Shown: positions 3,733-34,457, counted from the stretch's first letter. The stretch: 34,457 nucleotides of DNA from a virus (IMGVR_UViG_2908572912_000001:1-34457); one strand, 5' to 3'. Program-made: numbers and translations. The notes: generated by a model not told the origin, from the letters alone.

Positions 3733-3900
3733 TTACATGTTTTCGATGATCGCTTCACCAAACTCTGAACATTTCAGCAGCTTAGCGCCTTCCATCAGAC
3801 GTTCGAAGTCATAAGTTACGGTCTTGGCATTGATTGCGCCTTCCATACCTTTAACAATCAGGTCAGCCGCTTCAGTCCAACCCATATGGCGCAGCAGTAT
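3733..3900 (-). pseudogene. icdC: Displaced 3' end of icd (isocitrate dehydrogenase), last 55 codons only = icdC-type prophage junction
   Basis: Translation [55 protein letters not shown] equals the Icd C-terminus; similarity stops abruptly at 3900. Confidence 0.9.
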
Positions 3901-4596
3901 ATAAAAACATTAAGTTCAAGTCATTGATATTTAATGATAAAAAATATTTTATTGTTTTTTTATTAGCCAAAATCAACTTTATTCAACCGTTTGATTTCAT
4001 TGACGTTCGTTTTTATTTTGGGGAAAGGTTTTCTCTACCATTTATATCCAAATTACAAGTCTACATTTTATTAACACCTCAATACATGTGAGGCCTTGCA
4101 GACCTTTGTGAGACCTTATGTGTCTCTGTTTTGTCCCAACTTATGTTAAGAGGCACATAATTAAAAATAAGATAACGATGCCGCCAATCAGTGCAAAACC
4201 TTGTTTACTCCACGACTGTCTGCCCCATTATCTGCATACATAATTATCTTCCATAACTGAGATAAATGTCGGTTATGAGCGAACAACAGACGTTTAGTTT
4301 ATGATGACTGTATCTATACATTAAACATAACATCCATTACCGGCACCGCTTATTAATTGCTATCTGATATTGTCACTAAAAAATAGGCATTCCCCGATAT
4401 AATAATTACAAAGAAGCTTTTGGTGCTGGCAATCGGTATACCTAATAGTGGACTGCGACTTTCCGGGCTCGACAAGGATATATCAATGTATGAGCAGGAA
4501 AATTAGACCGTGGTGCGTCATATGATGACTAAGCACGGATAACAGCTACTTAATTGAAACTATTGATTATATTACAGCCAGTGCCTTATAGGATGG

Positions 4597-5718
4597 TTAG
4601 TCATCAACCGCGACTCCTGCACAATCATGGGCTATTGCCAGCAATTGTTTTTTAATTGCTTTAGCATCTACCGTCATATCTACTGTAGCAAAATGGATCT
4701 TATGTCCCTGAGTGACAACATACTCATTAAGCATATAGCCAACAGCTGGATGAAGTAGAAGACCAGCGGCATTGAGCGAAAGCGGATCCGTCTTGTTCTC
4801 CTGTGTTCTAAGGTAGGTATATAGCTGATAAATATAGCCATTACGTAGTGATTGCTCCCGATGCCAACCCTTTGTCAGAATCGAATTAAATTTGGTATCG
4901 ATAATAATACGCCGCTGGGCAGTCTTGTGTTCCAGAATAATGTCTGACTTCATTGTCGGGAAAATCTCTGCACTACCTGCACTTTGATCGCTCAACGCCC
5001 ATTTCAGCTCTTTCCCTGCAGAGACCTGCCAAGTTGTTTTGGCAAGGTGTACACGATATAAGCCAGCGATACCTTTTTCAAATAGTCTTCTCATCCAGTA
5101 AAGGTTATTTGAGGGCGCAGGTAAAAGATATTGGCCTTGATCTTCGGTCGGCATCAGCAGTTCAAAAGCTAATCGTGCGGCATCGACCATCGGTTTATCT
5201 GCGGCATCATGGCGTCCAAAACGCCACACTGAGGGTAATTCGTGGGGGGCAGGATATCCTCCATTTATCCCCTCACGGCGAAGTGATATTGCCATAAAAT
5301 GGCAATCTGCCGCCAAAGACGGTTTCACTATGATTGAGGCCAGACGTTCTAACGCACAGCGAACATAGCGATTTCGGGGGGTGTTGAGGGTTATGTCTTG
5401 AAAATGGCAGGCAACCTGTCCCCGTTCCAGTAGTTGATGACTGGCAGTATACAGTATGTCAATGCGCCCTCTCACCCGGTTCAGGGCCGCATGACAAGTT
5501 TGGTATCCCATATTTAAATTGCGACGTCGGCGCAGCGTAATCTCATGAAGGAGGATTGTCGCCACCAGGTCGGGGATTTCTGCTGGGTTATCTTCTACTG
5601 CGATCTGATTGCGCCCTAACTGACGAAACAGATCTGAAGCGTACAGCATCAGCATCCAGATATTTCGCATGGGAATACGTGATGCTGTATGTTGCTCACT
5701 CCCGGTTATTGTCGTCAT
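4597..5718 (-). CDS. mcrC: McrC-like endonuclease subunit (PD-(D/E)xK) of a McrBC-type modification-dependent restriction system
   Basis: N-terminal IPMRNIWMLMLYA resembles McrC IPVRNIYYMLTYAW; C-terminal IIIDTKF...NGYIYQLYTYL matches the McrC nuclease motif (VDAKY...NLYQLMNYL). 4-bp overlap with upstream mcrB-like gene. Confidence 0.8.
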   Translation of the reverse strand: MTTITGSEQHTASRIPMRNIWMLMLYASDLFRQLGRNQIAVEDNPAEIPDLVATILLHEITLRRRRNLNMGYQTCHAALNRVRGRIDILYTASHQLLERGQVACHFQDITLNTPRNRYVRCALERLASIIVKPSLAADCHFMAISLRREGINGGYPAPHELPSVWRFGRHDAADKPMVDAARLAFELLMPTEDQGQYLLPAPSNNLYWMRRLFEKGIAGLYRVHLAKTTWQVSAGKELKWALSDQSAGSAEIFPTMKSDIILEHKTAQRRIIIDTKFNSILTKGWHREQSLRNGYIYQLYTYLRTQENKTDPLSLNAAGLLLHPAVGYMLNEYVVTQGHKIHFATVDMTVDAKAIKKQLLAIAHDCAGVAVDD

Positions 5719-7697
5719 TTTGCTAATAACACTTTTCTGGCTTCATCGACTTTATTTGGAGCATCGAACCAATATTCGGCGAGCAAAGGGCAGATCTCTG
5801 TATCAACGACTTGTTCATACCAAGCCTGGGCATCGTTGATTTTTTGGCCGATAGCTGGGGTGACATAGCTGTGACCGATACAAAACTGTGGTCCTAAGGT
5901 AACATCTTTTGCCAGCATATCGTTAAGTACCGTCAGTCGAGATTTGATGAATGCTAACATGTCAAAATCAATTGCGTAATTATAATTTACCCAGTTTCTC
6001 CACGCGTCATTAAAAGCTGGCTTTAGATCGATAAACGCGAAACGACGGCGCAGCGCTAGGTCAAGTAGTGCGAGTGAGCGGTCTGCAATATTCATCGTAC
6101 CGATGATATATAGATTCTCAGGAATGTATATTTTTTCATCATCATTTTTAGGATAGGAAAGAGATAATGCCTCAGTCGGCGTGCGTTTATCTGCTTCCAT
6201 CAACGTGAGTGTTTCACCGAAGATTTGCGCCGGATTGCCACGATTAATCTCTTCAATTATCACCACATATTTCGAGGTAGGATTATTGACTGCAGTTTTG
6301 ATTGCATTTACAAAAGGTCCATCAATTAGCGTCAATTGCCCTTCTTTACCTGGACGCCAGCCGCGAATAAAGTCTTCGTAAGAGAGGTTCGGGTGAAATT
6401 GCACCGCGCTAATACGCTCAGGTGCTTTTTCTCCCATCAAGCAGTACGCCAGACGTCGCGCTAACCAGGTTTTTCCAGTTCCGGGTGGTCCTTGTAATAT
6501 CAGGTTTTTCTTGTCGATCAGGCGCTGAAGTGTGAGTTGGATCTTAGCCTCTTCCAAGAAACAGCCATCCTGCACCAGATGACTGATGTCATAAGGAACG
6601 TGAGTGAGTTTTGGCAACGGCGCACTCTCTTCGACAGTTTCCTCAGTTATCGTCTGGGATTCGTTTTTCTCAAAATTCAGGTATTCATAATTTCCGGACT
6701 CAAGGGACTTTAACTCATCATCATTGCATAGTTTCTGTAGATAAAAGTAGATTGAGCTTGTAACTGTTTTGCTCTCAGGATGCTCTACCTTGAATACGTC
6801 CAAGTAGTTTTCTTCCAACTCCGAAGCAGTGAAATAAGGGCCATTTTTTTTCAGGCATAACGCCTTAATTTTATTCAGTAAAGAGGCTTTCCACGTTCTA
6901 TTTGCCACCTCATCTTTAGACTGGCTAAGATCTGTATTCCACGCTGATAAAGAAAGTTCTGGGAAAGAATGAACCGGATAGTTTGGTTGGGTAAAGACCT
7001 CGTTCAGCGCCCGCATAAGACTCAGGTAACTTTGTCCACTACAGCGACCTTTTGCCCCGTTTTTAATGATCTTAATGTTTAACACTGTCTGAATGTAATA
7101 CTGCGACTGGCTATCTAAAGTAGGGTAGAACCAAGGACGGGTCCAGTACAACCCCATGGTGAGATTCCAACCGACATTCATTACTGTAGAAGCGATGTCA
7201 TATGCGGCAGTGAAGTCTGCAGAGTTAGTATTCTGGTTATCCGCAAAGGTCATTGCCTGCGAGAACATTTCCCACAAGCATTCAATGTCATTAGGGTCGC
7301 GTGACTTTTCATAACCAAAGAACCAAGATTTTTGGTTATTCAACAGCGGGATTCCGGCAAAGGAGTCAGGAATCGGTTCGTTCACGCCCAACAAATTCGC
7401 TAGCTTGGCAGCAATAATTTTGCGATTGCTGTCGGTCAAGTTACGATTGAACAAGCCCATAGTAGTAAACGGACAAATGTCTTTTAAGGGAAAGATCTCT
7501 CCCATAATAGATTTGTCCTGCAGATGGGACATTCCTTCCACACCTGAGGCAATTAGATGAATACCTTTGACTAATTCATCTCTACGATTTCGCCAAGTCA
7601 GTAACGCGTTGGCAAAAGCCTCATAAAAACTAGCCCAAGCAAATTTGCCATCATGTTCTGCTGTATCCACGGGAACTCCATTATACTTGTTGAGCAA
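5715..7697 (-). CDS. mcrB: McrB-like AAA+ GTPase (C-terminal 270 aa) with a long, unrecognised N-terminal domain of about 390 aa
   Basis: C-terminal LILQGPPGTGKTWLARRLAYCL, VVIIEEINRGN, YIIGTMNIADRSLALLDLALRRRF align with EcoK McrB GTPase motifs; N-terminal region has no similarity I recognise. Confidence 0.8.
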   Translation of the reverse strand: MLNKYNGVPVDTAEHDGKFAWASFYEAFANALLTWRNRRDELVKGIHLIASGVEGMSHLQDKSIMGEIFPLKDICPFTTMGLFNRNLTDSNRKIIAAKLANLLGVNEPIPDSFAGIPLLNNQKSWFFGYEKSRDPNDIECLWEMFSQAMTFADNQNTNSADFTAAYDIASTVMNVGWNLTMGLYWTRPWFYPTLDSQSQYYIQTVLNIKIIKNGAKGRCSGQSYLSLMRALNEVFTQPNYPVHSFPELSLSAWNTDLSQSKDEVANRTWKASLLNKIKALCLKKNGPYFTASELEENYLDVFKVEHPESKTVTSSIYFYLQKLCNDDELKSLESGNYEYLNFEKNESQTITEETVEESAPLPKLTHVPYDISHLVQDGCFLEEAKIQLTLQRLIDKKNLILQGPPGTGKTWLARRLAYCLMGEKAPERISAVQFHPNLSYEDFIRGWRPGKEGQLTLIDGPFVNAIKTAVNNPTSKYVVIIEEINRGNPAQIFGETLTLMEADKRTPTEALSLSYPKNDDEKIYIPENLYIIGTMNIADRSLALLDLALRRRFAFIDLKPAFNDAWRNWVNYNYAIDFDMLAFIKSRLTVLNDMLAKDVTLGPQFCIGHSYVTPAIGQKINDAQAWYEQVVDTEICPLLAEYWFDAPNKVDEARKVLLAK

Positions 7698-8039
7698 TGA
7701 TAATTTATCTGTGTGAGTTTTAACATATTACTATCAGTTATAGAAAAATTTAACTACCCGATACAGAGAGCGGCATGCTGAATTTGACCTGACTTGCTTC
7801 CAACCAATTAAAATCAACTTATTTATCAATTGGTTATTTTGGCGCATAGCGGTCATCAAGGGAATATCGCGTTGTCATAAGGTGTCGAGGCTCGGAGGTT
7901 CAAATCCTCTCATGCAAAAAATAAATAAAATTAATGACGGTTGGAAATTATTCAATACATACACTCTCGAAAGTGCATCAACCAACCGCAGCACGTCTTG
8001 CATACGGCGTGTCTGCAGTTTTATATAATCCTGGCTGGA

Positions 8040-8262
8040 AACCTCTTATACAAAGTCGATACACCAATATCATAGATGATCGCCACCTTCTGACGCGGGA
8101 CTTTTGATGCAATTAATCGCCCGGCCTGCGCCCATTGTTCTGATGTAAGTTTAGGACGACGTCCACCAATTCCTCCCTGTGCGCGAGCATCTTCCAGTCC
8201 AACTTTTGTTCAGTCATCAATCAGTTCACGCTTCATTTCAACCAGGGCTCCATCACATGGAA
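8040..8262 (-). pseudogene. pin: pin-type DNA invertase (serine recombinase) 3' fragment with internal stop
   Basis: Minus-strand translation ...GALVEMKRELIDD* then ...GLEDARAQGGIGGRRPKLTSEQWAQAGRLIA..PRQKVAIIYDIGVSTLYKRFPA matches the Hin/Gin/Pin C-terminal HTH region; N-terminal catalytic domain absent. Confidence 0.6.
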
Positions 8263-8737
8263 AAATAAAAAAAAACCATCGATGTTGACGTGTCAATGTT
8301 ACCTGTCAGGCTACGGAAATCCCCCCCCTTACCCGCAGCTACTCGGTAAGTATAATAAGATGTTTCCTGCTCCTTCCTAACCTGTCCAGTTTCCAGACAA
8401 TTAAAGTATCACCTTATATAAGAGACTGCAGAGCGCACTTTAACCTAGGTCGTTCTGAAATAGTTGCAGATTCGATTAATCAACGATTATACTCCCCGGC
8501 ACTCCAGAGGATCTGGTAAACATAAAGTCAGAGCTTGGGTATACTGGCACACAAATGGCAGATCTTGCAGGTGCAGCCAGTCATAGCCAGTGGCGAAAAT
8601 ACACGAGTGGTTCTGAGCCCCGCGCCATGTCATCACATATCTTGTTTTTTTATTGCTACCAATCTGACTTTGAGTACTAATGAGCTAGATAGAATTGTTT
8701 GTAAAATAAAAAAAATTGGAACAGTGATTATATAAAA

Positions 8738-9826
8738 ATGAAGAAGGTAAAATCAATTCACTATTTGCGAGGTGTAGCAGCATTACTCGTTGTTGCATAT
8801 CACAATAAACAATACCTAAATGAAGTTTACGCACAAAAAGATCTAGGTGATTTATTGTTTATTAGTGGTGGTTTTGGGGTTGATCTGTTTTTTATTATAA
8901 GTGGATTTATAATAATGTTATCGAGTCAAAAAAAAGAAACAAATTCCCCTATTAACTTTATGACCAGGCGTTTTTTCAGGATTTACCCTGTATTTTTCAT
9001 TTGCACAATCTTATTCTTTTTATTGAACCCAGTCTTCACCGAAAGTGAATTATTGCGTTCATTGTTTCTGCTTCACCTGGACTATTATTCAGAAGCGCCA
9101 TTCTTCGGATACAACGTGCTTTATCCAGCATGGACATTAACCTTTGAAGTCTATTTTTATTTCATTTTTATGCTTGCAATATCGCTGAGTCATAAAAACA
9201 GATTATTAATATCAGTTATTGCATTGATAGTCCCGCTACTTCTCATACAGTTGAAATTTTCCAACAGCCTTTCTCTATCAAGTAAGTTTACGATTGGTGA
9301 TACAGGTCATTGGCATATTGGCTTTCTAAACTTAATGTCATCACCCATGCTGTTAGAATTCGTTTATGGGATGTTTCTGTATATAATACACAGAAAATTT
9401 AAATATATAAAAAACGCAAAGGCGATATCATTCCTTTTGGTTTCATTTGGTGTTTGCTCATATTTTTATCAATTCAGATTTGGTCATGGCCCTTTAAACT
9501 TCGGATTGTGGGCAGCCTCCATAATTACGGGAGTTTTACTTTATGAAGTTAACTTCGGATTAAGGGAAAATAAAATACTCAGTAAGCTAGGTGATATCTC
9601 TTACTCTCTGTATTTATCCCATGCGATAGTAATGCTATTTTTAATTAATTTTAAGGATTTCATTCCGCTTTATGAAAAACCTGGGTTCTCTAAGTTTTCA
9701 TTCATTATTGCTCTTAGCTTGTTCTTATCATTCTTTATTTATAAATATATTGAAACTCCATTCATTAATATCGGAAAAACAATATCCAAAAGACTTTCAA
9801 AACCAACATTAACTTATAGCGAATAG
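8738..9826 (+). CDS. Acyltransferase family 3 integral membrane protein (OafA/Oac-like O-acyltransferase), AT-rich cargo gene
   Basis: 362 aa, about 10 hydrophobic segments, N-terminal YLRGVAALLVVAYH and FFIISGF motifs typical of acyltransferase-3; very low GC relative to neighbours. Confidence 0.75.
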   Translation: MKKVKSIHYLRGVAALLVVAYHNKQYLNEVYAQKDLGDLLFISGGFGVDLFFIISGFIIMLSSQKKETNSPINFMTRRFFRIYPVFFICTILFFLLNPVFTESELLRSLFLLHLDYYSEAPFFGYNVLYPAWTLTFEVYFYFIFMLAISLSHKNRLLISVIALIVPLLLIQLKFSNSLSLSSKFTIGDTGHWHIGFLNLMSSPMLLEFVYGMFLYIIHRKFKYIKNAKAISFLLVSFGVCSYFYQFRFGHGPLNFGLWAASIITGVLLYEVNFGLRENKILSKLGDISYSLYLSHAIVMLFLINFKDFIPLYEKPGFSKFSFIIALSLFLSFFIYKYIETPFINIGKTISKRLSKPTLTYSE

Positions 9827-10130: not shown

Positions 10131-10463
10131 CTATCGCTTCGAAGGTGGAGGCCAGACGGGGTTTACTGTATCAACACGGTTCAGCAATACCCGATATGTT
10201 TTCCATGCGGCCAGAAACGCTTTCTCTTCCTCCGTTGCGATCTCCAGCTCAGCAACAGTCTGAACGTACCAGGAACAGCCTCCTTCAGGGCTTGAAGGAT
10301 ATTTCACGTTAATCCCGTTAAGATCATCGCTGCCGGGAACGTTCGTCGAGGCATGAAGATACCCCGCGCTCAGCGTGGACTGATGTTCAGACGCCCATGC
10401 AGGCGCACCGGATACGACCAGACAGATGGCTGCGGACAAAATGGCTGCACAAACTTTACGCAT
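10131..10463 (-). pseudogene. lom: lom outer-membrane protein gene, frameshifted after about 55 codons
   Basis: [55 protein letters not shown] matches lambda Lom N-terminus, then diverges into an unrelated frame. Confidence 0.7.
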
Positions 10464-10533: not shown

Positions 10534-13310
10534 TCAACGAATACTGATGCCGGAAGCAGCCTTTTTGGTCACAATCACCGTACAGTCGGTGATATTGCCT
10601 GCCCCCTGATTGCCTTTCTGGAAAATCTTAAACTCCAGAGTGACGCTTCCCCTGCCACTCGGCATATCAATAACCGCACTGTAACTACCGGGAATGGCCC
10701 CTTTAGTTTCTCTGGATGCGATTAATACGCCGTTTTTGCGAACTTCAAAACCATACCCCGTGTACCTTGTACCTCCCGGGTTATCACCACTTCCCGGATC
10801 GTCATACGCTATACCGTTAAAGATAATGGGCGGAATAATGATTTGACGGTCAAAGTTATGATCATCGCTGATGGTGACTGTAACCGTCCCGTCTGGTGTT
10901 TCCGTGTTACCCCACGTACCAGCCTTTTTCGGGAATGATTTGGATACTGTTTTAACAAAATCACCTCTGACCTGATTCGCCTCCAGCATACCCTTAATCG
11001 TACAGTTTTCATTTATCGTGACGTTGTTGAGCGTCCCGGCGTTCGCATTCACACTGCCACTGATATCCGCATTTTTAGCGGTCAGCTTTCCGTCCGGTGT
11101 CAGGGAAAATACCGGTGGATTTCCACCACTGGTAATGGTGGGGGCCGTCAGGCGTTTGAGGAACACGTCGTTCATGAATATCTGGTTGCCCTGCGCCACA
11201 AACATCGGCGTTTCATTCCCGTTTGCCGGGTCAATAAACGCGATACGATTGGCGGCAACCAGAAACTGGCTCAGTTTGCCTTCCTCTGTATCCTCCATGC
11301 TGAGGCCAAGCCCCGCGACATAATGCTTACCGTCTTCGGTCTGCTCAATTTTGACGCCCCACATGGCATTCCATTTATCGTTGGCGTCCTTCCACTCTTT
11401 CGAAAACTCCTCCAGTCTGCTGGCGTTATCCTCCGTCAGCTCGACTTTTTCCAGCAGCTCCTTGCCGAGATGGGATTCGGTTATCTTGCCTTTGAAAAAA
11501 TCCAGGTAACCTTCCGCATCATCGCTCGCCCGACCAACGGCTTCCACGAATGCCGATTTGCCAACGGTGTTCACACTGCGGATATAAAAGTAATAATCAT
11601 GGCCCGGTTTGATATTGATACTGGCGGCTATCCAGTACAGCGCCGTACCAAGATAGCGGGCTGTGGTTTCAACCTGCCTGATATCGGTAATCCGCTTTTC
11701 CGAGAACCAGAACTCAAACTGTACCGTCGGGTCATAAACGGCAAGATGCGGCGTGGCGGTTATCTGAAAATAGCCCGGCGTCAGCTCAATCCTCGACGGT
11801 GTTGCCGGTGCGGCAATCCGGAACGATACCGACGCCGGATCGCCCTGCTGTCCCCACGCATTTACCGCCCGGACTGTCAGCGTGTACCGCCCCAGCGCCA
11901 GTTGCGTGAAGCGGTATGTGGTTTCCGTCGTCCGGGCCGTGCTGACCAGCCGCTCACTGCCGTCATCCGCTGCCACGGTCAGGCGAAGCATAAAGCTCAC
12001 CCCCTTCACCACCTTCGGCGTGTCCCAGCGCGCCAGCACCTGATATTCCCCGCTGTCTGCGGTGACTTCGGCAGTCAGGTGCTGCACCGCTGGCGGCGTG
12101 ACACCATTCACCGTGCCGCTCTGGTCGCCGTCAAAGTGCGCCCCGTTATCCACGATGGCCTCTTTTTCCGGTACATGCTGCACGGCGGTGATGGCATACG
12201 TGCCGTCATCGTTCTCACGGATACTCACGCAGCGGAACAGACGCTGGCGCAGCGTCGGCAGCTTCAGCCCCCATACGCTGTATCCGGCAACGCCGTCAGG
12301 AACACGGCTCACTTTTACCTTCACGCCGTCGGTGACGGACTGGACCTCCACGCTGACCGGATTGCCACTTCCGTCAACCAGGCTTATCAGCGTGGTACCG
12401 GAGGATGGCAGCGTGATTTCACGGTCAAGCGTCAGCGTCCGGGTCTGGCTGTTCACCGCCAGCACGCGCCCGCCGATGCTGATCCCCGCATAGTCATCAT
12501 CGCAGATTTCAATAACATCACCCGGCACATGGCGAAGCCCTTCGGCACCCACGCTGAAATCCACGGTCTGCGTCTCCAGCAGCTCCGTTTTAATCAGCCA
12601 CAGCCCGGCGCGGTGTGCCTGCCCCCGGCTGGTACAGCCAAAGGCATCCATCTTCGTGACGTTACGACCGTAACGGGCAATGGCCTGCGTGTCCTCCACA
12701 AGCTCTGTCGCCGTCTCCCAGCCGTTATCCGGGTCAATCCAGTTCACCTCAACGGCATTATGGCGGTCCTTCAGGGCGCTGAAGCTGTAGCGGAACGGCG
12801 CGCCATCATCCGGCATCACCACATTACTGCGGTTATAGGTCCACACCTTATCTGATGGTCGGTCCTGCACGAACGTCAGCGTCTGCCCGTTCCATACCGG
12901 CATACAGCGCATCGCCGAGCAGAAATCACTGAGCACATCCCACGCCTTGCGCTGTGTGGTCAGGTACGCATTACAGGTGATGCGCGGCTCCGTGCCGCCA
13001 AAGCCGTCCGGCACTGACTGGTCGCAGTACTGGCCGATGACATACAGCGCCCATTTATCCACATCCGCCGCACCAAGACGTTTCCCCATGCCGTAGCGCG
13101 GATGGGTCAGCATATCCCACAGACACCAGGCCATGTTGTTGCTGTACGCTGGCCTGAACGTTCCGTCCCAGATACCGCTGTATTGCCGCGTCTGCGGGTT
13201 ATAATTCGACGGCACCTGCAGAATACGCCCGCGCAGATGATAATTACGGCTCACCTGCTGGCTGCCGAACTGCTCCGAGTCCACCTGCACGCCGACCAGT
13301 GCCGTGTTCG
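10534..13310 (-). pseudogene. J: Tail tip/host-specificity protein J, C-terminal ~918 codons only (N-terminal ~200 codons deleted)
   Basis: Translation matches lambda J from ...[19 protein letters not shown] to the C-terminal receptor-binding region; no ATG start, upstream sequence is nu1 in another frame. Confidence 0.9.
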
Positions 13311-13839: not shown

Positions 13840-14060
13840 ACAGAGAAAGGAAACGACAAAGGCCCAAAAGTTCGTTTTCAGCACCTGTCGTTTCCTTTCT
13901 TTTCAGGGGGTATTTTAAATAAAAACATTAAGTTACGACGAAGAAGAACGGAAACGCCTTAAACCGGAAAATTTTCATAAATAGCGAAAACCCGCGAGGT
14001 CGCCGCCCCGTAACCTGTCGGATCGCCGGAAAGGACCCGCAAAATGATAATAATTATCAT
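13840..14060. other. cos: Lambda-type cos region: cosN 12-nt cohesive end (AGGTCGCCGCCC at 13997-14008), cosB on the nu1 side, cosQ-like GATAATAATTATCAT on the other
   Basis: Reverse complement reproduces the lambda left-end sequence (GGGCGGCGACCTCGCGGGTTTTCGCTATTTATGAAAATTTTCCGG...) as remembered. Confidence 0.8.
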
Positions 14061-21252: not shown

Positions 21253-21469
21253 TGCGTTGAGTAGTATTCCGGGACGCCAATCCCGTGTGCCGATTTTGCG
21301 GCAACGCACAGAATATATCCCCAGATAAATCATGTCGTCAACCCCAGTAAATGGACACCATGATGATCACAGCCATAGCTGCTACAACAGTTACAACTAC
21401 CTCAGGCCAAAACATAACGATTTCCATATCACCTTTAGCCGCCAGACGAATAGAGACTCCCAATTCTGG

Positions 21470-24786: not shown

Positions 24787-24925
24787 TTTTCATTACATAG
24801 CGGGCATCAATTCCGCCACCGTGTAGCCAACGCCAAACTGTGGGTTGGGCTACACCGCATAGATCTGCCAGTCGTTTTTGACTACCTGTAATACTGATTG
24901 CGAGTTGAATGGTTTGATTTGTCAT
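24677..24925 (-). CDS. Cro-like HTH protein; the native C-terminus is uncertain because the frame runs through the P start region
   Basis: MTNQTIQLAISITGSQKRLADLCGVAQPTVWRWLHGG has a Cro/CI-type HTH; divergent from cI across an operator region. Confidence 0.5.
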   Translation of the reverse strand: MTNQTIQLAISITGSQKRLADLCGVAQPTVWRWLHGGGIDARYVMKIVSATGGKIKPADTAGSADHQRCVQTVTGNFPCEPG

Positions 24926-26997: not shown

Positions 26998-27506
26998 TTC
27001 ATAATGGAAAATTCTTAATTGATAGTAATGTCTTCATAGAGGCAAAAAACTTTGCATATAACTTCAATTATTGCAAAATATTTTGGGATTTTCTTCTCGC
27101 TTTACACATTAATGGTCTGATTTATAGCATTAATGCTGTAAAAAAATAACTATGTGCAAAAGATGATCCATTGTGTAAATGGATTAAAGAAGAGTTACCA
27201 TCATCATTCTTCGAAGATGAGCATAGTTCAATAGAAAATTATGCAAAGTTAATAAATTGGTCAACTAAATTAGATGTTACCGAAAAGGCAAAGTTTGATT
27301 TTGCAAGCCATGAAAAAGCAGATGCTTTTTTAATAGCCCATGCGATGACACATGGATATACTATTATTACCCATGAGAAACCATCCGGTGGCAAACCTAA
27401 AAAAAGAATAATGATCCCGGATGCTGCTGCTTCTCACGGCGTTAAGACATTAACACTATATGAATTTCTTCCAAGATACGCTAGTCATAATTTTTCTTTG
27501 AAATAA
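26994..27506 (+). pseudogene. DUF4411-like PIN-like nuclease gene, translationally coupled (ATGA) to the ImmA gene, interrupted by an in-frame TAA at 27147-27149
   Basis: Codons 1-51 MIHNGKFLIDSNVFIEAKNF... (PIN-like Asp in LIDSN) then TAA, then the same frame continues 118 codons to 27506 (...ADAFLIAHAMTHGYTIITHEKP...). Frame verified codon by codon. Confidence 0.65.
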
Positions 27507-27780: not shown

Positions 27781-28191
27781 TTGAATTTCAGCAGGCTCCG
27801 GGGAGTGCGAGGGGTGAAGCGGACGCGTGAACGTCGGTGTGACCAGCTGAAATCAACTCAACACTTCATACCTCAGTCGCTTCAACGAGGCGGCTTAGTT
27901 ATGACAACCGGCGGCCATCCACCGCCTGAATACGCGCAGAAGTCTTTATATGTTCAGCAGCCCAGCTTACGGGCAGGAGTTTTTATGGTTCATCAACATT
28001 ACGGAACGCAGACCGTTAATCGCGGTGCGGTCATGCCAGGAATGCTGGTCAAACACAAAGATGGTACCTGGACTGCATCAGCTAATTTACGCGGACGGCT
28101 TTATCTGCATCGCGGCATCGAGCGCACTTATACCCGTGATTTGCTCGTAGAAGTTTTTCTCGACGGACGCGGTAACGGCCTGAATCACTAA
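27781..28191 (+). CDS. Hypothetical early-left protein; N-terminal Arg-rich stretch (RLRGVRGVKRTRERR) if the TTG start is used; alternative ATG at 27901
   Basis: First ORF after the pL-like promoter, the place of N in lambda; no similarity to lambda N beyond an Arg-rich motif. Confidence 0.35.
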   Translation: MNFSRLRGVRGVKRTRERRCDQLKSTQHFIPQSLQRGGLVMTTGGHPPPEYAQKSLYVQQPSLRAGVFMVHQHYGTQTVNRGAVMPGMLVKHKDGTWTASANLRGRLYLHRGIERTYTRDLLVEVFLDGRGNGLNH

Positions 28192-28267
28192 CCCCTCTTT
28201 CCTGTTTTCCTAATCAGCCTGGCATTTCGCGGGCGATATTTTCACAGCCATTTTCAGGAGTTCAGCC

Positions 28268-28564
28268 ATGAACGCTTATTACATTCAGGATCGTCTTGAG
28301 GCTCAGAGCTGGGCACGTCACTACCAGCAGATCGCCCGTGAAGAGAAAGAGGCAGAACTGGCAGACAACATGGAAAAAGGTCTTCCACAGCACCTGTTTG
28401 AATCACTCTGTATCGATCATTTGCAACGCTGCGGGGCCAGCAAAAAAGCCATTACCCGTGCGTTTGATGACGATGTTGAGTTTCAGGAGCGCATGGCAGA
28501 ACACATCCGGTACATGGTTGAAACCATTGCTCACCACCAGTTTGATATTGATTCAGAGGTATAA
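28268..28564 (+). CDS. gam: Gam (RecBCD inhibitor), short GamS form
   Basis: [54 protein letters not shown]... matches lambda Gam; the long-form N-terminal extension is in a different frame here. Confidence 0.9.
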
Positions 28565-28569
28565 AACGG

Positions 28570-29355
28570 ATGAGTACAGCACTCGCAACGCTGGCAGGGA
28601 AGCTGGCTGAACGTGTCGGCATGGATTCTGTCGACCCACAGGAACTGATCACCACTCTTCGCCAGACGGCATTTAAAGGTGATGCCAGCGATGCGCAGTT
28701 CATCGCATTGTTGATCGTCGCCAACCAGTACGGCCTTAATCCGTGGACGAAAGAAATTTACGCCTTCCCTGATAAGCAGAACGGCATTGTTCCGGTGGTG
28801 GGCGTTGATGGCTGGTCCCGCATCATCAATGAAAACCAGCAGTTTGATGGCATGGACTTTGAGCAGGACAATGAATCCTGTACATGCCGGATTTACCGCA
28901 AGGACCGTAATCATCCGATCTGCGTTACCGAATGGATGGATGAATGCCGCCGCGAACCATTCAAAACCCGCGAAGGCAGAGAAATCACGGGGCCGTGGCA
29001 GTCGCATCCCAAACGGATGTTACGGCATAAAGCCATGATTCAGTGTGCCCGTCTGGCCTTCGGATTTGCTGGTATCTATGACAAGGATGAAGCCGAGCGC
29101 ATTGTCGAAAATACTGCATACACTGCAGAACGTCAGCCAGAACGCGACATCACTCCGGTTAACGATGAAACCATGCAGGAGATTAACACTCTGCTGATCG
29201 CCCTGGATAAAACATGGGATGACGACTTATTGCCGCTCTGTTCCCAGATATTTCGCCGCGACATTCGCGCATCGTCAGAACTGACACAGGCCGAAGCAGT
29301 GAAAGCTCTTGGATTCCTGAAACAGAAAGCCACTGAGCAGAAGGTGGCAGCATGA
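28570..29355 (+). CDS. bet: Bet (Red-beta single-strand annealing recombinase)
   Basis: 261 aa, matches lambda Bet along its full length from memory. Confidence 0.95.
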
Positions 29356-30032
29356 CACCGGACATTATCCTGCAGCGTACCGGGATCGACGTGAGAGCTG
29401 TCGAACAGGGGGATGATGCATGGCACAAATTACGGCTCGGCGTCATCACCGCTTCAGAAGTTCACAACGTGATAGCAAAGCCCCGATCAGGAAAGAAGTG
29501 GCCTGACATGAAAATGTCCTACTTCCACACCCTGCTGGCTGAGGTTTGCACCGGTGTGGCTCTGGAAGTTAACGCTAAAGCGCTGGCCTGGGGAAAACAG
29601 TACGAGAACGACGCCAGAACCCTGTTTGAGTTCACTTCCGGCGTAAATGTTATTGAATCCCCGATCATCTATCGCGACGAAAGTATGCGCACCGCCTGCT
29701 CTCCCGATGGTTTATGCAGTGACGGCAATGGCCTTGAGCTGAAATGCCCGTTTACCTCCCGGGATTTCATGAAGTTCCGGCTCGGTGGTTTCGAGGCCAT
29801 AAAGTCGGCTTACATGGCCCAGGTGCAGTACAGCATGTGGGTGACGCGAAAAGATGCCTGGTACTTTGCCAACTATGACCCGCGTATGAAGCGTGAAGGC
29901 CTGCATTATGTCGTGGTTGAGCGGGATGAAAAGTACATGGCGAGTTTTGACGAGATGGTGCCGGAGTTCATCGAAAAAATGGACGAGGCACTGGCTGAAA
30001 TTGGTTTTGTATTTGGGGAGCAATGGCGATGA
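29352..30032 (+). CDS. exo: Exo (Red-alpha 5'-3' exonuclease)
   Basis: 226 aa, matches lambda Exo along its full length from memory. Confidence 0.95.
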
Positions 30033-30190
30033 AGCATCCTCACGATAATATCCGGGTAGGCACGATCACTTTCGTCTACTCCGTTACAAAGCGAGGCTGG
30101 ATATTTCCCGGCCTTTCTGTTATCCGAAATCCCCTGAAAGCACAGCGGCTGGCTGAGGAGATAAATAATAAACGGGGGCTGTATGACTGA
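30029..30190 (+). CDS. Small lambda-like ORF downstream of exo (53 aa, [53 protein letters not shown])
   Basis: ATGA overlap with exo stop and with the methyltransferase start; lambda carries a similar ORF here. Confidence 0.5.
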
Positions 30191-30740
30191 TTTCACCGGA
30201 AGCAATACTCCTGCCGAACATCGCGACAGCTGGCGCACACCACCAGAGATTTTTGCTGCGCTTAATGCAGAGTTCGTTTTTCAACTTGATGCTGCCGCCA
30301 GCGAAAAAAACCGACTATGTCGGCTTTTTATCTCACAGGAGCAGAACACATTAACCACTTCATGGCCTGAAGCAATGGGATATGCCTCTGGTTATGTCTG
30401 GTTGAATCCACCATACAGCAATATTTCCCCTTTTGTGAAAAAGGCAGCCACTGAAAACAAATTCAGTAGTGTGGGATGTGTAATGTTATTGCCTGCTGAC
30501 ACATCTGTCGGATGGTTTCATGAAGCGATACAAACCGCCAGTGAGGTCAGATTCATCACGGCAGGACGACTGGCATTTATTAACCCACTCACTGAGAAAC
30601 CCGTCAGTGGAAATAATAAAGGCTCGATGCTCATTATCTGGCACCCATACCCCCGTACACACTGCCACTTTACGACCGTTGATCGTGGAGAGTTGATGGC
30701 GTTCGGCTCAAGGATTCTTGCCCGTCGGGAGGCTGCATGA
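30183..30740 (+). CDS. Phage-type orphan DNA N6-adenine methyltransferase (small Dam-like, NPPY motif)
   Basis: 185 aa with motif YVWLNPPYSN (motif IV of amino-methyltransferases) and an upstream FVFQLDAAAS motif-I-like region. Confidence 0.75.
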   Translation: MTDFTGSNTPAEHRDSWRTPPEIFAALNAEFVFQLDAAASEKNRLCRLFISQEQNTLTTSWPEAMGYASGYVWLNPPYSNISPFVKKAATENKFSSVGCVMLLPADTSVGWFHEAIQTASEVRFITAGRLAFINPLTEKPVSGNNKGSMLIIWHPYPRTHCHFTTVDRGELMAFGSRILARREAA

Positions 30741-30820
30741 CAACCACTGAATGCATTTTTCTGGCAGCGGGCTTCATATTCTGTGTGCTTATGCTTGCCG
30801 ACATGGGACTTGTTCAATGA
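30737..30820 (+). CDS. Possible 27-aa hydrophobic peptide (MTTTECIFLAAGFIFCVLMLADMGLVQ), overlapping neighbours by ATGA at both ends
   Basis: Hand translation; single predicted TM helix; coding status unproven. Confidence 0.3.
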   Translation: MTTTECIFLAAGFIFCVLMLADMGLVQ

Positions 30821-31032
30821 CACCTCAGCAAGAAAACGCCCTTCGCAGTATTGCCCGTCAGGCTAATTCTGAAATCAAAAAAGCCAGACAGCAGTTTCCG
30901 GATAAAAACGTCGATGACATTTGCCGTAGCGTACTGAAGAAGCACCGCGAAACGGTAACGCTGATGGGATTCACACCGACTCACTTAAGTCTGGCAATCG
31001 GCATGTTAAACGGCGTCTTTAAGGAACGGTGA
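30817..31032 (+). CDS. Hypothetical protein (71 aa)
   Basis: ORF with ATGA coupling; track alt-start at 30751. Confidence 0.45.
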   Translation: MTPQQENALRSIARQANSEIKKARQQFPDKNVDDICRSVLKKHRETVTLMGFTPTHLSLAIGMLNGVFKER

Positions 31033-31052
31033 ACATGAAAAGCAAAATCATC

Positions 31053-31078
31053 AGGGAGCTACAGGCTCCTTTTTTATT
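31053..31078 (+). terminator. Rho-independent terminator (ggagc tacag gctcc + ttttttatt)
   Basis: GC stem and T-run. Confidence 0.5.
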
Positions 31079-31130
31079 ATTCGCATTCACCCTCAAGCGT
31101 ATTAACCAACAATTCAGGGATTAATGGAAG

Positions 31131-31349
31131 ATGGCAGACATCATTGATTCAGCATCAGAAATCGAAGAATTACAGCGCAATACAGCAATAAAAATGCGTC
31201 GTCTGAACTACCAGACTGTATCTGCCACTCATTGTTGTGAGTGTGGCGATCCGATAGATGAGCGAAGACGCCTGGTCGTTCAGGGTTGTCGGACTTGTGC
31301 AAGTTGCCAGGAGGAGATCGAACTTAAGAACAAACAATGGGGATTGTGA
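31131..31349 (+). CDS. TraR/DksA-family C4 zinc-finger protein
   Basis: 72 aa with CxxC...(17)...CxxC (CCECGDPIDERRRLVVQGCRTCASC). Confidence 0.75.
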   Translation: MADIIDSASEIEELQRNTAIKMRRLNYQTVSATHCCECGDPIDERRRLVVQGCRTCASCQEEIELKNKQWGL

Positions 31350-31396
31350 TGGCCTCAAAGCAGCAAATTTCAACATCGTCCAACTGAGGTGTAAAA

Positions 31397-31636
31397 ATGT
31401 TCAGAATCATTTTTCCTAACACCTGGTACGTCGACCACCACGGCACTCCCTGCAAAATCCTGCGTTCTACCCACAACAAAGTTCACTACATCCGAAAAGG
31501 CAGAACATGTATCGCCAGCATGTTCCGCTTTAATCATGACTTTGAACCTGTGAATAAAGCTGATGCAGATCGAATAGCAGAAGAGATCGAAACGGCAGAA
31601 CACATTAAGAAGTTACGTGCCATACGCAGAAAATAG
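31397..31636 (+). CDS. Hypothetical phage protein (79 aa)
   Basis: ORF only. Confidence 0.45.
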   Translation: MFRIIFPNTWYVDHHGTPCKILRSTHNKVHYIRKGRTCIASMFRFNHDFEPVNKADADRIAEEIETAEHIKKLRAIRRK

Positions 31637-31713
31637 AAAAATTGATAAATTCAATACTGCATTTCTCAGCATGAACCGCCCCGGGTTTCCTGGAGAGTGT
31701 TTTATCTGTGAAC

Positions 31714-32604
31714 TCAGGCTGCCAGATCATCGTTTCCGATGGAAGCATAATAAGCTTTTTCTGCTTCTGCCGGAGGAGTATGGCCCAGCCTTTCCAGCAA
31801 TCGTCGATTGTTATACCAGTCCACCCACGTGAGTGTGGCCAGTTCCACTTCTGCACGGTTTTTCCAGCTCTTACGGTGTATTACCTCCGCTTTGTAAAGG
31901 CCATTGATGCTCTCCGCCATCGCGTTGTCATACGAGTCGCCTGTACTTCCTGTTGATGCCAGTAATCCGGCTTCCTTAAGCCGCTGTGTGTAGGCCAGCG
32001 ATACATACTGAGAACCTTTATCACTGTGATGGACTGTGCCGGACGGTCGACGGGCCCATAACGCCTGCTCCAGAGCATCCAGCACAAATGTCGTTTCCAT
32101 AGACGATGAGACCCGCCACCCCACGATGTATCCGGCAAACACATCAATGATGAACGCCACATAGACGACCCCCTGCCATGTGCTGACGTAAGTAAAATCA
32201 GCCACCCACAACTGGTCAGGACGTTCTGCCACGAACTGACGGTTTACGCGGTCGCCTGCGACAACGGCTTTCCGGCTGATGGTCGTACGGACCTTTTTAC
32301 CCCGGAGAACACCGGCAAGTCCCATAACCGCCATGAGACGTGCCACAGTGCATCTGGCCACTCTGATACCTTCCCGTAACAACTGACGCCAGACTTTACG
32401 CACACCGTATACCTTGTGATTTTCATCGTATACGCGCTGTATCTCTTTCTTCAGCCAGTCATCGCGCTGCGCACGGGCACTGCGTTTATCCGGATGATGT
32501 CGCTGTTGCTGACAGTGGTAATACGTTGACGGGGCAATATGCAGTTCGCTGCATAGCGGTCCGACCCCGTACTGCTCACGCAGCTTATCCAGCAGTGGCA
32601 TCAT
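31714..32604 (-). CDS. IS629-like transposase OrfB (DDE)
   Basis: 296 aa with DDE integrase-core motifs ([19 protein letters not shown]). Confidence 0.9.
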
Positions 32605-32927
32605 TTTTTCCAGAGGCGGTCGAACTCCGCCTTCGCAAAATAAGCGGAAGCCTGGCGAAGGATATCGTTACTGCGGCGCAGTTCACGATTTTCACGTTCC
32701 AGCTCTTTCAGACGCTGACGTTCAGCGGTGGTGAGCCCGCCATCACCGCCTCCGGTATCCCGCTCATGCTGGCGTACCCAGACACGCAGAGTCTCCGGTG
32801 TACAGCCAATCTTTGGGGCAATGGAACAAATTGCCGCCCACTGTGAGTCATATTCGCCCTGACTTTCCAGAACCATACGAATCGCCCTCTGACGGACTTC
32901 GGGGGAAAAACGAGTATTTTTAGTCAT
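32601..32927 (-). CDS. IS629-like transposase OrfA
   Basis: [57 protein letters not shown]... as remembered for IS629/IS1203 OrfA. Confidence 0.9.
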
Positions 32928-33088
32928 CCTGTTTACCTCTTTCTCAGGGAGTTTAGTCTCCAGGATTCCCGGGGCGGTTCAGCATTAAATTTATCTCTAT
33001 GACCAGTCAAGAGATGTACCTGCCATGAGCTTAATATCATGTCAGATATATCGGTCACAAACTCCCTCAGCAGCTAAGAGGAGGACAA

Positions 33089-33325
33089 ATGTCTCGACTA
33101 ATCACTTTACAGGACTGGGCTAAAGAAGAATTTGGGGACTTAGCACCAAGTGAGCGAGTTCTGAAAAAATACGCGCAAGGGAAAATGATGGCCCCACCCG
33201 CTATAAAAGTTGGTCGCTACTGGATGATTGACCGAAATTCCCGTTTTGTAGGAACGCTTGCAGAACCGCAACTCCCAATAAACGCAAACCCAAAACTCCA
33301 ACGGATAATCGCTGATGGCTGCTAG
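33089..33325 (+). CDS. xis: Excisionase-like protein (Xis) overlapping the integrase start
   Basis: 78-aa ORF immediately upstream of and overlapping int; name from position. Confidence 0.65.
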   Translation: MSRLITLQDWAKEEFGDLAPSERVLKKYAQGKMMAPPAIKVGRYWMIDRNSRFVGTLAEPQLPINANPKLQRIIADGC

Positions 33326-34457
33326 ACCCCGATCTCACAAAATCTCTATACCCAATTTATATTGCAAATTAGATAAGCGAACCGGAAAGGTATATTGGCA
33401 ATACAAACATCCACTATCCGGTCGTTTTCATAGCTTAGGAACTGATGAGAATGAAGCAAAACAAGTTGCTACTGAAGCAAATACCATTATTGCTGAACAA
33501 CGTACCCGACAAATATTAAGCGTCAATGAGCGTCTGGAAAGAATGAAAGGCAGGCGCTCAGACATTACGGTGACAGAATGGCTTGATAAATATATTTCTA
33601 TCCAGGAGGACAGGCTGCAACATAATGAACTAAGACCCAACTCCTATCGGCAAAAAGGCAAACCCATTCGTCTTTTCCGTGAGCATTGTGGAATGCAACA
33701 CCTCAAGGATATTACCGCACTTGATATTGCCGAAATAATTGATGCTGTAAAGGCTGAAGGTCATAACAGGATGGCGCAAGTCGTGAGAATGGTGTTGATC
33801 GACGTCTTCAAAGAAGCACAACACGCAGGACATGTTCCGCCAGGATTTAACCCAGCGCAGGCAACAAAACAACCGCGAAATCGAGTAAACCGCCAAAGAT
33901 TGTCACTGCCCGAATGGCAGGCAATATTTGAAAGCGTAAGCAGACGGCAGCCCTATTTAAAATGCGGCATGCTACTTGCTCTTGTTACTGGACAACGTTT
34001 AGGCGATATCTGCAATTTGAAATTCTCTGATATATGGGACGACATGTTGCACATTACTCAGGAAAAAACCGGTTCAAAACTTGCTATTCCGCTTAACCTG
34101 AAATGCGATGCTCTGAATATTACCCTTCGTGAAGTTATATCTCAGTGCAGGGATGCTGTTGTTAGTAAATATCTGGTCCATTACCGTCACACTACCTCTC
34201 AAGCAAACAGAGGAGACCAGGTTTCTGCAAATACTCTGACAACGGCTTTTAAAAAGGCCCGGGAAAAATGTGGCATAAAATGGGAGCAAGGAACTGCGCC
34301 CACATTTCATGAGCAGCGATCTCTGTCAGAACGGTTATATCGGGAACAGGGTCTGGATACGCAAAAATTGTTAGGCCATAAATCCAGAAAAATGACCGAC
34401 CGATACAATGATGATCGTGGTAAAGACTGGATTATCGTAGATATCAAAACAGCATAG
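33315..34457 (+). CDS. int: Tyrosine integrase (e14 IntE / phage 21 type, icd-site specific family); stop codon is the last three bases of the window
   Basis: 380 aa; C-terminal catalytic region ...HEQRSLSERLYREQGLDTQKLLGHKSRKMTDRY (R..H.R..Y pattern); similarity to IntE recalled from memory. Confidence 0.9.
   Translation: MAARPRSHKISIPNLYCKLDKRTGKVYWQYKHPLSGRFHSLGTDENEAKQVATEANTIIAEQRTRQILSVNERLERMKGRRSDITVTEWLDKYISIQEDRLQHNELRPNSYRQKGKPIRLFREHCGMQHLKDITALDIAEIIDAVKAEGHNRMAQVVRMVLIDVFKEAQHAGHVPPGFNPAQATKQPRNRVNRQRLSLPEWQAIFESVSRRQPYLKCGMLLALVTGQRLGDICNLKFSDIWDDMLHITQEKTGSKLAIPLNLKCDALNITLREVISQCRDAVVSKYLVHYRHTTSQANRGDQVSANTLTTAFKKAREKCGIKWEQGTAPTFHEQRSLSERLYREQGLDTQKLLGHKSRKMTDRYNDDRGKDWIIVDIKTA

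Follow-up and report, generated by a model that had tools for sequence, protein, structure and literature searches.

The window, by which we mean the whole 34,457-nt stretch of viral DNA analysed here, very probably carries at 3900–34457 a defective ('grounded') lambdoid prophage of the phage 21 integrase lineage, inserted at the 3' end of icd. The original prediction had placed such an element at these coordinates, and both the element and its boundary were borne out. As defective lambda-type prophages go it is ordinary, being a shortened version of a phage lineage that is common and still alive. Long stretches of 100% identity to an almost complete prophage indicated that its decay consisted of a few recent events, and below we present the comparisons behind this conclusion. 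Features are collected in Table 1.

Site, boundary and remaining genes

Positions 1981–3899 matched the K-12 ycgX-iraM-icdC' flank with 99.9% identity, and the similarity ended at the very base where e14 ends in K-12. Comparison of boundary sequences set the attR-side prophage boundary at 3899/3900, marked by icdC'. The first phage bases (GTATATAAAAA...) matched the phage 21 sequence that immediately flanks its icd-like fragment on the int-distal side. Directly abutting phage 21-like DNA, icdC' is the displaced icd fragment that insertion into the 3' end of icd leaves at the distal end of a prophage. Because the window stops at the int stop codon, attL and icd itself lie outside it.

Table 1. 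Features of the icd prophage and its boundary, in window positions
Feature	Position	Strand	Evidence or remark
icdC', displaced native icd 3' end	3733..3897	-	99.9% to K-12 icdC flank, 87% to icd
Phage DNA flanking icd-like fragment, int-distal	3900..4284	.	84–86%; homologous to phage 21 26950–27332 and Perceval
mcrC, intact	4597..5670	-	NCBIfam equivalog NF007277, 355.6 bits (cut-off 338); Pfam McrBC; 100% to CV839
McrB-like AAA+ GTPase, intact	5715..7670	-	AAA_5 match
pin-type serine recombinase pseudogene	8033..8470	-	66% aa to e14 PinE residues 36–181
O-acetyltransferase (Acyl_transf_3), intact	8738..9826	+	~34% GC
lom'::tfa' fusion ORF	10131..10463	-	Lom residues 1–55 only
J', tail-tip gene lacking codons 1–211	10534..13314	-	
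nu1' (residues 1–170), out-of-frame fusion into J	13244..13819	-	junction 13311–13317
cosN cohesive-end sequence	13997..14008	-	exact GGGCGGCGACCT
bor/iss lipoprotein gene, intact	14765..15058	+	100% to CV839
Lysis cassette: S21-type pinholin, R21-type SAR endolysin, Rz, all intact	15090..16260	-	
nmpC-type porin gene between Q and S, intact	16834..17916	+	
Q (QuuD type), ylcG, rusA, ybcO, ninE, ybcN, all intact	18105..19978	-	QuuD type, 99%
Antirepressor module	20149..21303	-	isrK RNA, C4 antisense RNA, Ant, 83-aa ORF
83-aa ORF in antirepressor module	20149–20400	-	
Bro-N/P22AR_C Ant gene	20460–21074	-	Pfam and PHROGs Ant matches
C4 antisense RNA	21121–21206	-	RF01695, 72.4 bits (GA 45)
isrK RNA	21231–21303	-	RF01394, 60.7 bits (GA 50)
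NACHT-domain NTPase, 631 aa, intact	21686..23581	-	~33% GC
ren' (residues 1–58) and lambda-type P' (residues 32–233)	23975..24753	-	lambda comparison
cro-like gene, cut after codon 59	24749..24925	-	cro'::P' junction
cI-type repressor (HTH and S24 peptidase), intact	25036..25728	+	domain content
ImmA/M78 peptidase gene (intact) and DUF4411 PIN-like gene	25858..27506	+	TAA stop in DUF4411 at 27147–27149
Early-left operon, all intact	27985..31636	+	kil, gam, bet, exo, DUF1317, Dam, orf61-like, TraR, DUF4222
Dam methyltransferase gene, intact	30183–30740	+	within early-left operon
IS629/IS1203-like, IS3-family element between DUF4222 and xis	31674..32981	-	3-bp target duplication (GCA)
xis and int, phage 21 type, intact	33089..34457	+	34457 is the end of the int stop codon

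Int shared 99.5% amino acid identity with phage 21 Int (M61865/OL657228) and 60% with e14 IntE, Xis was 36% identical to XisE, and the xis-int DNA was 99.5% identical to that of phage 21. The integrase and site had been described as 'e14/phage 21-like'; the module is phage 21's own, and the e14 part of the description held only for the shared site and the 60% integrase. This xis-int module is widespread: of 5426 complete E. coli genomes, 1590 (~29%) have it.

Lambdoid phages follow the order int-xis, early-left recombination genes, cI/cro, O/P, nin, Q, lysis, cos, and head/tail. The element preserved the lambda gene order wherever genes remained, and was colinear with lambda, phage 21 and Perceval. 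A full replication and morphogenesis set was absent from it: A through I, the J N-terminus, stf, the O-like gene, ydaT and the P N-terminus were missing, which renders the element defective and, in a gene-by-gene status table, bore out the loss claimed earlier. We infer that it can neither replicate nor build particles. Its predicted remaining functions are probably repressor immunity and the expression of autonomous cargo genes; those still expressed probably comprise McrBC-like restriction, the NACHT protein, the porin, Bor, the O-acetyltransferase and Dam.

The genes that remain could be matched module by module. Positions 14711–20150 were 93–96% identical to K-12 DLP12 at the nucleotide level, confirming the DLP12-like label given to nin-Q-nmpC-lysis-bor; the nmpC-type gene of the window was uninterrupted, whereas K-12 nmpC carries an IS5 interruption. 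The lysis proteins shared 86% (S21) and 98.8% (R21) amino acid identity with those of phage 21. The left and right lambda ends meet at 14008/14009. The gam-bet-exo, cos, nu1, J, P and ren sequences were present as the lambda-like parts that had been predicted, with an identity reported overall as 93–98%. Individually, Nu1 residues 1–170 were 99.4% identical to lambda, J residues 212–1131 were 86% identical to lambda J and 97% to Perceval J, P residues 32–233 were 97% and ren residues 1–58 were 88% identical, and gam-bet-exo shared 97% of nucleotides. The stretch from the cI-downstream slot to kil yielded no N-type antiterminator gene; its sole ORF (102 aa) belongs to no family. An ALIL pseudoknot was detected in the IS629-like element.

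An inherited mosaic

Coverage of the element at at least 90% identity was 81.5% for the CV839-06 prophage, 29% for phage 21, 25% for lambda and 0% for e14. The CV839-06 prophage was 100% identical over 3900–10900, most of 13900–17400, 24900–31700 and 32900–34457, and together with Res13 it covered 100% of the element. Perceval covered 52–54%, and all of the sequence it left uncovered was cargo or IS. The original prediction described a mosaic of several phage lineages, and measured against the type phages the element was one: lambda, DLP12, phage 21 and e14 jointly covered only 47%. It also named colinearity with a single known phage as evidence against a mosaic, and this was found in part, the backbone being strictly colinear with Perceval and with the CV839-06 icd prophage. 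Because the backbone is colinear with single live phages and with CV839-06, the mixture of lineages was not made here but was inherited from an existing phage lineage.

The icd prophage of CV839-06 (NZ_CP025753, ~4,012,008–4,061,436; ETEC1731 and ETEC1747 are of the same type) shared with the window the icd site and 100% identical int-xis, early-left operon, cI, ImmA-DUF4411 region, Dam, lysis genes, bor, acyltransferase, pin' and McrBC. It differed in keeping nu1 through J, lom, stf, the O-like gene and ydaT, in its P (55% identical), in having an intact DUF4411 gene and no IS629 before xis, and in its nin slot, which held IS1 and a hypothetical gene in place of the window's ant module and NACHT gene. 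The immediate ancestor would resemble this ~50-kb prophage.

The live phages Perceval (OV696612, Bievrevirus), 4A7, 1W and ev207 resembled the window in Int (99.5–99.7%) and in gene order throughout, and shared its DLP12-type nin-Q-porin region, lambda-type cos/nu1/J and Red genes. They differ from the window in being complete, infectious phages that lack the McrBC, NACHT and ImmA/DUF4411 cassettes and carry sitABCD, emrE-ybcK-hydrolase and other post-cI genes in their cargo slots. Phage 21 (OL657228) had in common with the window Int (99.5%), xis, the icd attachment with its icd-like fragment, the S21/R21 lysis genes, bor, Red genes and lambda-type P/ren, but differed in Nu1 (55%), Q (30%), cI/cro and the nin region, and has no porin gene.

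DLP12 of K-12 and E. coli B matched at 93–98% over nin-Q-nmpC-S-R-Rz-bor-ylcI-cos-nu1 and had the same ren-to-ybcN slot, and in E. coli B its nu1'::J' junction was identical to that of the window. In contrast to the window, DLP12 is at argU with intD, carries emrE, ybcK, ybcL, ybcM, appY and ompT as cargo, and has no immunity region. Membership of DLP12 was rejected, as the element is at icd with a phage 21 int and only its late and nin modules are DLP12-like. Lambda shared cos, nu1, J, P, ren, gam-bet-exo and overall gene order with the window, but not int/att, the immunity region, the nin region, Q or S/R; no N gene was found in the window. The e14 gene set comprises intE, lit, ymfD-ymfT, pinE and mcrA. 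The window resembled e14 in its icd attB, its integrase and, near attR, the pairing of a pin gene with a type IV restriction gene; it lacked lit, ymfD/E and the e14 regulatory and tail genes. Kinship with e14 at the DNA level was rejected, the only match being 406 bp of pin at 75%.

Deletions and their junctions

Relative to CV839-06 the element had three deletions, nu1'::J' (15.4 kb), lom'::tfa' (3.85 kb) and cro'::P' (1.7 kb), as well as the IS629-like insertion, a swapped nin-region cassette (antirepressor and NACHT) and the DUF4411 nonsense mutation. The nu1'::J' deletion is equivalent to lambda 700–16134 and its junction shows a 4-bp microhomology (TACC). By running from the end of nu1 into J, it would have removed the terminase large subunit, the head genes and most tail genes. 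The lom-tfa deletion would have removed most of lom, the side tail fibre gene and part of tfa, and the cro-P deletion the O-like gene (replication initiator), ydaT and the start of P. The IS629-like insertion upstream of xis would also be among the disabling events. Only 8 substitutions in 6.9 kb separated the element from the nearly complete prophage.

We searched 5426 complete E. coli genomes for these junctions. Neither the lom'::tfa' nor the cro'::P' junction occurred in any of them; the cro'::P' junction 40-mer was likewise absent among GTDB species-representative genomes, and the Lom-Tfa fusion protein was not on record as a called gene. The exact combination in the window was carried by 0 of the 5426, and none covered at least 80% of either window half. 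Because of this absence, the order of events given here is reconstructed rather than observed.

A combination absent from complete genomes could be taken to mean that an icd prophage was joined in assembly to a DLP12- or Qin-type prophage across common lambdoid sequence, and outside the window both the J'/nu1' deletion allele and this nin cassette were seen at argU or Qin sites. However, Logan contigs from SRR6799402 covered 10273–13640 and 24720–28281 at 100% identity and spanned all three deletion junctions. One contig of 3368 bp (100%) joined the lom'::tfa' junction, J' and the nu1'::J' junction in a single piece. Another carried the illegitimate cro'::P' junction, linking the Res13-type block to the CV839-type immunity-to-int block; this junction is in non-homologous sequence, and so collapse of a repeat cannot produce it. 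SRR6799402 is possibly the same strain as the window source, in which case the contigs are read-level confirmation and not an independent lineage. They contradict the misassembly raised earlier as a possibility, and we regard an assembly chimera as barely credible.

Two stretches, J'/nu1' and the nin cassette, were unlike the CV839 type and matched prophages at argU (DLP12) or Qin sites. Both, the first together with its deletion allele and the second up to the cro'::P' junction, would have come from other lambdoid prophages; from the sequence comparison we infer that inter-prophage recombination exchanged them. The nu1'::J' junction was base-identical at three sites: icd (the window), argU/DLP12 (REL606 and Ec-RL2-1X; E. 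coli B, C and others) and Qin (FDAARGOS_1337). In all, 64 genomes carried it. Finding the same junction at three sites suggests that grounding deletions are perhaps not solely vertical in inheritance.

Cargo slots and what they imply

That defective lambdoid prophages carry variable cargo slots is textbook knowledge. In the element the slots were discrete, variable and low in GC (islands 32–37% versus ~50% for the backbone), flanked by conserved phage sequence, and the same slots carry other genes in relatives. They were the att-proximal b region, downstream of cI, ren to ybcN, exo to xis, Q to S, and Rz to cos.

Towards the attR end, only residues 366–643 of the McrB-like protein matched McrB structures (PDB 6hz4/6ut6, 262–263 bits). 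Its residues 1–365 matched neither McrB nor any Pfam family, and the EcoKMcrB N-terminal 5-methylcytosine-binding domain was not found among them; these ~365 amino acids are unrelated to the DNA-binding domain whose place they take. The neighbouring pin gene is annotated as frameshifted in E94 and CV839.

The NACHT module (PF05729, E = 3e-11) spanned residues 126–237 of a protein that also matched phrog_18297 and was 99.7% identical to the protein of the Res13 argU-site prophage. Of the 5426 complete E. coli genomes, only 6 had the whole NACHT island. Searches of PADLOC 2.0, NCBIfam and PDB gave no match to the NACHT protein, which matched only phage families of uncharacterised function; on its domain content it is a candidate NLR-like defence gene. 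In the same island the C4 and isrK RNAs lie immediately upstream of ant and on its strand, as in P1/P7 ImmI and the Gifsy-1 isrK type. A direct repeat of the ylcH linker brackets the module: 44 nt by the repeat finder (19999–20042 / 21481–21524), and ~117 nt by DLP12 homology (second copy 21490–21606). The antirepressor module is regulatory, not defensive.

In the slot held by rexAB in lambda, an M78/ImmA gene (PF06114) is directly upstream of the DUF4411 gene (PF14367), with weak RmrA matches (~30 bits). Three-component toxin-antitoxin systems of HTH/ImmA (M78) and PIN-like DUF4411 proteins have been described (PMC5499597), and the pair is also RosmerTA-like. The nuclease/toxin partner gene is not intact, as Glu52 has changed from GAA to TAA at 27147, and the same change was present in the SRR6799402 reads. 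PADLOC made no call for McrC, NACHT or DUF4411; because of this, the defence labels for NACHT and ImmA/DUF4411 are drawn wholly from domain content and literature context.

The claim that cargo is retained stood for McrBC, NACHT, ImmA, nmpC, bor and the acyltransferase, and failed for DUF4411 (nonsense codon) and lom (truncated); for the antirepressor part of the NACHT island it was the defence-type label that failed. It had been coupled to selection for cargo functions, by which a domesticated carrier would keep defence and surface-modifying genes while dispensable phage functions decay. The intact McrC, McrB-like, acyltransferase, nmpC, bor, NACHT, ImmA and Dam genes, in recognisable slots with different genes in relatives, fit this idea. 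However, all 19 non-structural backbone genes outside the three deletions were also intact (int, xis, kil, gam, bet, exo, cI, five nin genes, Q, S, R, Rz and others), whereas three cargo genes, lom, DUF4411 and the pin pseudogene, were inactivated. The structural loss was essentially a single 15.4-kb event, and decay with as few substitutions as reported above is too young for a difference in retention to tell us anything. Selection for cargo thus found no specific support, and we consider a domesticated carrier unlikely.

An intact cosN with the nu1-side cos region, intact int and xis, and a retained repressor might also suggest a satellite-like element that excises and is packaged by a helper lambdoid phage. 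Lambda-type cos packaging has a lower limit of roughly 38 kb, and the element, at ~30.8 kb, falls below it. In addition, the replication initiator is absent, IS629 lies between xis-int and the early-left operon, and no genes for capsid-size redirection or helper sensing were present; the architecture is simply that of a deleted prophage. The satellite/PICI reading was rejected on size and gene content, and is very improbable.

For the defective prophage itself, homologous recombination may let one such element disable another, and the McrB-like 365-aa reader domain or the NACHT protein could, judging from sequence, bring new specificities. Taken jointly, that grounding deletions are copied between resident lambdoid prophages and that the McrB/NACHT specificities are possibly new is a tentative reading, to which we give slightly less than an even chance. 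Alone, the element matters little. Because a near-identical and almost complete relative allows each step of its decay to be placed with single-base precision, it is a clean worked example, and it illustrates a deletion allele common to prophages at different chromosomal sites. For icd-site prophages in general, its map of slots could serve as a guide to surveying cargo and defence genes systematically.

Boundaries and module affinities

The element was originally predicted to be a prophage at the icd site occupying window 3900–34457, and these coordinates were correct. Similarity to K-12 stopped at 3899, which is the exact end of e14 in K-12, and the bases that follow (GTATATAAAAA...) matched phage 21 DNA adjoining the int-distal side of its icd-like fragment. 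The window ends with the integrase stop codon (34457), and attL and icd lie outside it; in the closest relative, icd is 114 bp beyond the matching point. The first 3.9 kb is a K-12-type ariR-ycgZ ... ycgX-iraM-icdC' chromosomal flank. Between ycgZ and ycgX, an IS3 copy (724–1981) that is 100% identical to K-12 IS3C and has no target duplication replaces bluF and bluR; the 2.6 kb carrying these genes in K-12 is absent, indicating an IS-associated deletion of the blue-light regulatory genes. We also observed that ycgX (DUF1398; 2125–2333) has 71–73% DNA identity to DLP12 ybcV and to the ORF in the lambda right arm; the iraM-ycgX flank may thus be the relic of an earlier prophage.

All modules named in the original prediction proved to be real. 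The Int protein was 99.5% identical to that of phage 21 (M61865, OL657228) versus only 60% to IntE of e14, Xis and XisE shared 36% identity, and no DNA was shared with e14 at ≥90% nucleotide identity. Lambda-like sequence comprised Nu1 residues 1–170 (99.4% identity), J residues 212–1131 (86%), P residues 32–233 (97%), ren residues 1–58 (88%) and gam-bet-exo (97% at the nucleotide level), and the lambda left and right ends meet at 14008/14009. The DLP12-like region (see table) includes an intact nmpC, and the holin and endolysin are of the phage 21 type (S21 86%, R21 98.8%). The C-terminal part of J (approximately the last 150 residues; 10534–10978) diverges from lambda J and matches the live phage Perceval and the prophage of strain CV839-06, which would suggest that the parent phage used a receptor other than LamB. 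No N-type antiterminator gene was recognisable at 27506–27985, from the slot downstream of cI to kil, and the annotations of CV839-06 and Perceval also lack one.

Features of the element and its flank, with cargo slots and their contents in relatives
Feature	Window position	Content in the window	Counterpart in relatives
icdC'	3733–3897	displaced icd 3' fragment	
lom'::tfa' junction	~10300	lom codon 55 joined to tfa end; 110-aa fusion ORF left	
nu1'::J' junction	13311–13317	nu1 end joined to J codon 212; TACC microhomology	
cosN	13997–14008		
DLP12-like region	14711–20150	bor, Rz, R, S, nmpC, Q, ylcG, rusA, ybcO, ninE, ybcN	K-12 DLP12 (93–96% identity)
cro'::P' junction	24749–24753	cro-like gene codon 59 joined to P codon 32	
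Att-proximal b region		McrC, McrB-like protein, pin', O-acetyltransferase	sitABCD (phage 21, Perceval); pin-mcrA (e14)
Downstream of cI (lambda rexAB position)		ImmA/M78 and DUF4411	two hypothetical genes (Perceval; E94)
ren to ybcN		isrK/C4-regulated antirepressor module, 83-aa ORF, then 631-aa NACHT gene	emrE-ybcK-ybcL-ybcM (DLP12); NADAR-family protein, phosphoribosyltransferase-like protein, MT-A70 methyltransferase pseudogene (E94)
exo to TraR		Dam methyltransferase	DGQHR protein (E94)
Q to S		nmpC	
Rz to cos		bor	

A shared backbone and probable exchange between prophages

A phage genome search revealed five live temperate phages (Perceval, 4A7, 1W, D2 and ev207) with the same combination and order of modules: a phage 21 int, lambda-type Red genes and P/ren, a DLP12-type nin-Q-porin region, and lambda-type cos/nu1/J. 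Perceval aligned with 52–54% of the element, strictly following the prophage order; each unaligned stretch was a cargo cassette or an IS. Closer still was the nearly complete icd prophage (~50 kb) of the porcine E. coli strain CV839-06, which covered 81.5% of the element. Identity to it was 100% across 3900–10900, most of 13900–17400, 24900–31700 and 32900–34457, with 8 substitutions in 6,928 bp at 24900–31700. Together with the argU-site prophage of strain Res13-Lact-PEA14-20 (Res13) it covered 100% of the element; joint coverage by lambda, DLP12, phage 21 and e14 was 47%. Of 5426 complete E. coli genomes, 1590 carried the xis-int module, and a published example of this icd-site family is NC-SV of strain NC101 (PMC12803456). 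Thus, the predicted mosaic structure is real but is not private to the element: most of it came down from a known phage lineage, as the colinearity with Perceval and CV839-06 showed. We concluded that the element is a defective lambdoid prophage of an ordinary kind, from an icd-site lineage that is very common.

Two stretches were not of CV839 type. The first (~10900–13400), containing J' and the nu1' junction, was 94–98% identical to every reference. Its nu1'::J' junction was present in 64/5426 complete genomes and was base-identical in the argU-site DLP12 of E. coli B REL606 and Ec-RL2-1X and in Qin of FDAARGOS_1337, placing it at three prophage sites (icd, argU, Qin); it also occurred in many metagenome contigs adjoining cusS, some with a further internal J deletion. 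Separate origins at three sites are improbable because the microhomology is only 4 bp, and it is likelier that the deletion allele moved between prophages by homologous recombination. The second stretch (19400–24750) was 98–100% identical to the Res13 prophage. It terminates at cro'::P', an illegitimate junction where CV839-type cro is joined to lambda/Res13-type P (24145–24925). The P of CV839 itself is just 55% identical; therefore, the junction arose either by deletion within a prophage that had become recombinant beforehand or by illegitimate joining of two different prophages.

Deletions, cargo and selection

Relative to the CV839 type, we counted three deletions. The one at nu1'::J' spans the equivalent of lambda 700–16134 (A through I plus the N-terminus of J); structural loss was in essence one event of 15.4 kb. 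At lom'::tfa', 3.85 kb is gone (the side tail fibre gene together with most of lom), and at cro'::P', 1.7 kb (the O-like initiator and ydaT). Other lesions were an IS629-like insertion between DUF4222 and xis, flanked by a 3-bp target duplication, a truncated ren, and pin as a pseudogene. The lom'::tfa' and cro'::P' junctions were found in 0/5426 complete genomes. Misassembly of the element is very unlikely, because two independently assembled contigs from run SRR6799402 were 100% identical to 10273–13640 and 24720–28281, across all three junctions.

The variable cassettes were all rare among the 5426 genomes: the McrBC-acyltransferase block in 34, ImmA/DUF4411 in 32 and the NACHT island in 6. 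GC content of the acyltransferase, NACHT and ImmA/DUF4411 cassettes was 32–37% versus ~50% for the backbone. The proposal of three defence-type islands needs qualifying: McrBC is well supported, but the NACHT protein, for which PADLOC, NCBIfam and PDB gave no match, is only a candidate, the DUF4411 gene is broken, and the NACHT island consists in part of a phage regulatory module rather than a defence system. Residues 1–365 of the McrB-like GTPase (5715–7670) had no sequence match in Pfam, NCBIfam or PDB; this region stands where EcoKMcrB has its DNA-binding domain, and may be a different modified-DNA reader. The ImmA/DUF4411 pair fits a predicted three-component toxin-antitoxin type (PMC5499597). 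Glu52 of the DUF4411 PIN-like protein, the nuclease of the pair, is changed from GAA to TAA (G-to-T at 27147), a stop shared by an SRR6799402 contig; the gene is intact in CV839-06.

C4 antisense and isrK RNAs (Rfam, above gathering scores) lie at 21121–21303, directly upstream of a Bro-N/P22AR_C antirepressor gene, forming a P1/P7- or Gifsy-1-type control module inside the nin-region cargo slot. A ylcH-containing linker is directly repeated on either side (19999–20126 and 21481–21606). A repeat finder gave 44 nt at 86% identity (19999–20042 and 21481–21524); DLP12 homology gave ~117 nt, with the second copy at 21490–21606 and the position of the first inferred. From this arrangement, the module looks like a cassette inserted by recombination at a conserved boundary sequence.

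The original prediction also held that cargo was retained by selection while replication and morphogenesis were lost. Our data permitted this reading but lent it no support. In the gene-status table, the 19 non-structural backbone genes that the three deletions had spared were all intact (among them int, xis, kil, gam, bet, exo, cI, five nin genes, Q, S, R and Rz), and 3 of 14 cargo genes counted were broken (lom, DUF4411 and pin). The near-identity to a nearly complete prophage and the loss of structural genes in essentially one event argued likewise, and recent, largely neutral decay fits the data at least as well as selective retention. Further interest in the element is modest, and lies in the occurrence of nu1'::J' at three prophage sites and in the putative McrB reader domain and the NACHT protein, both uncharacterised.
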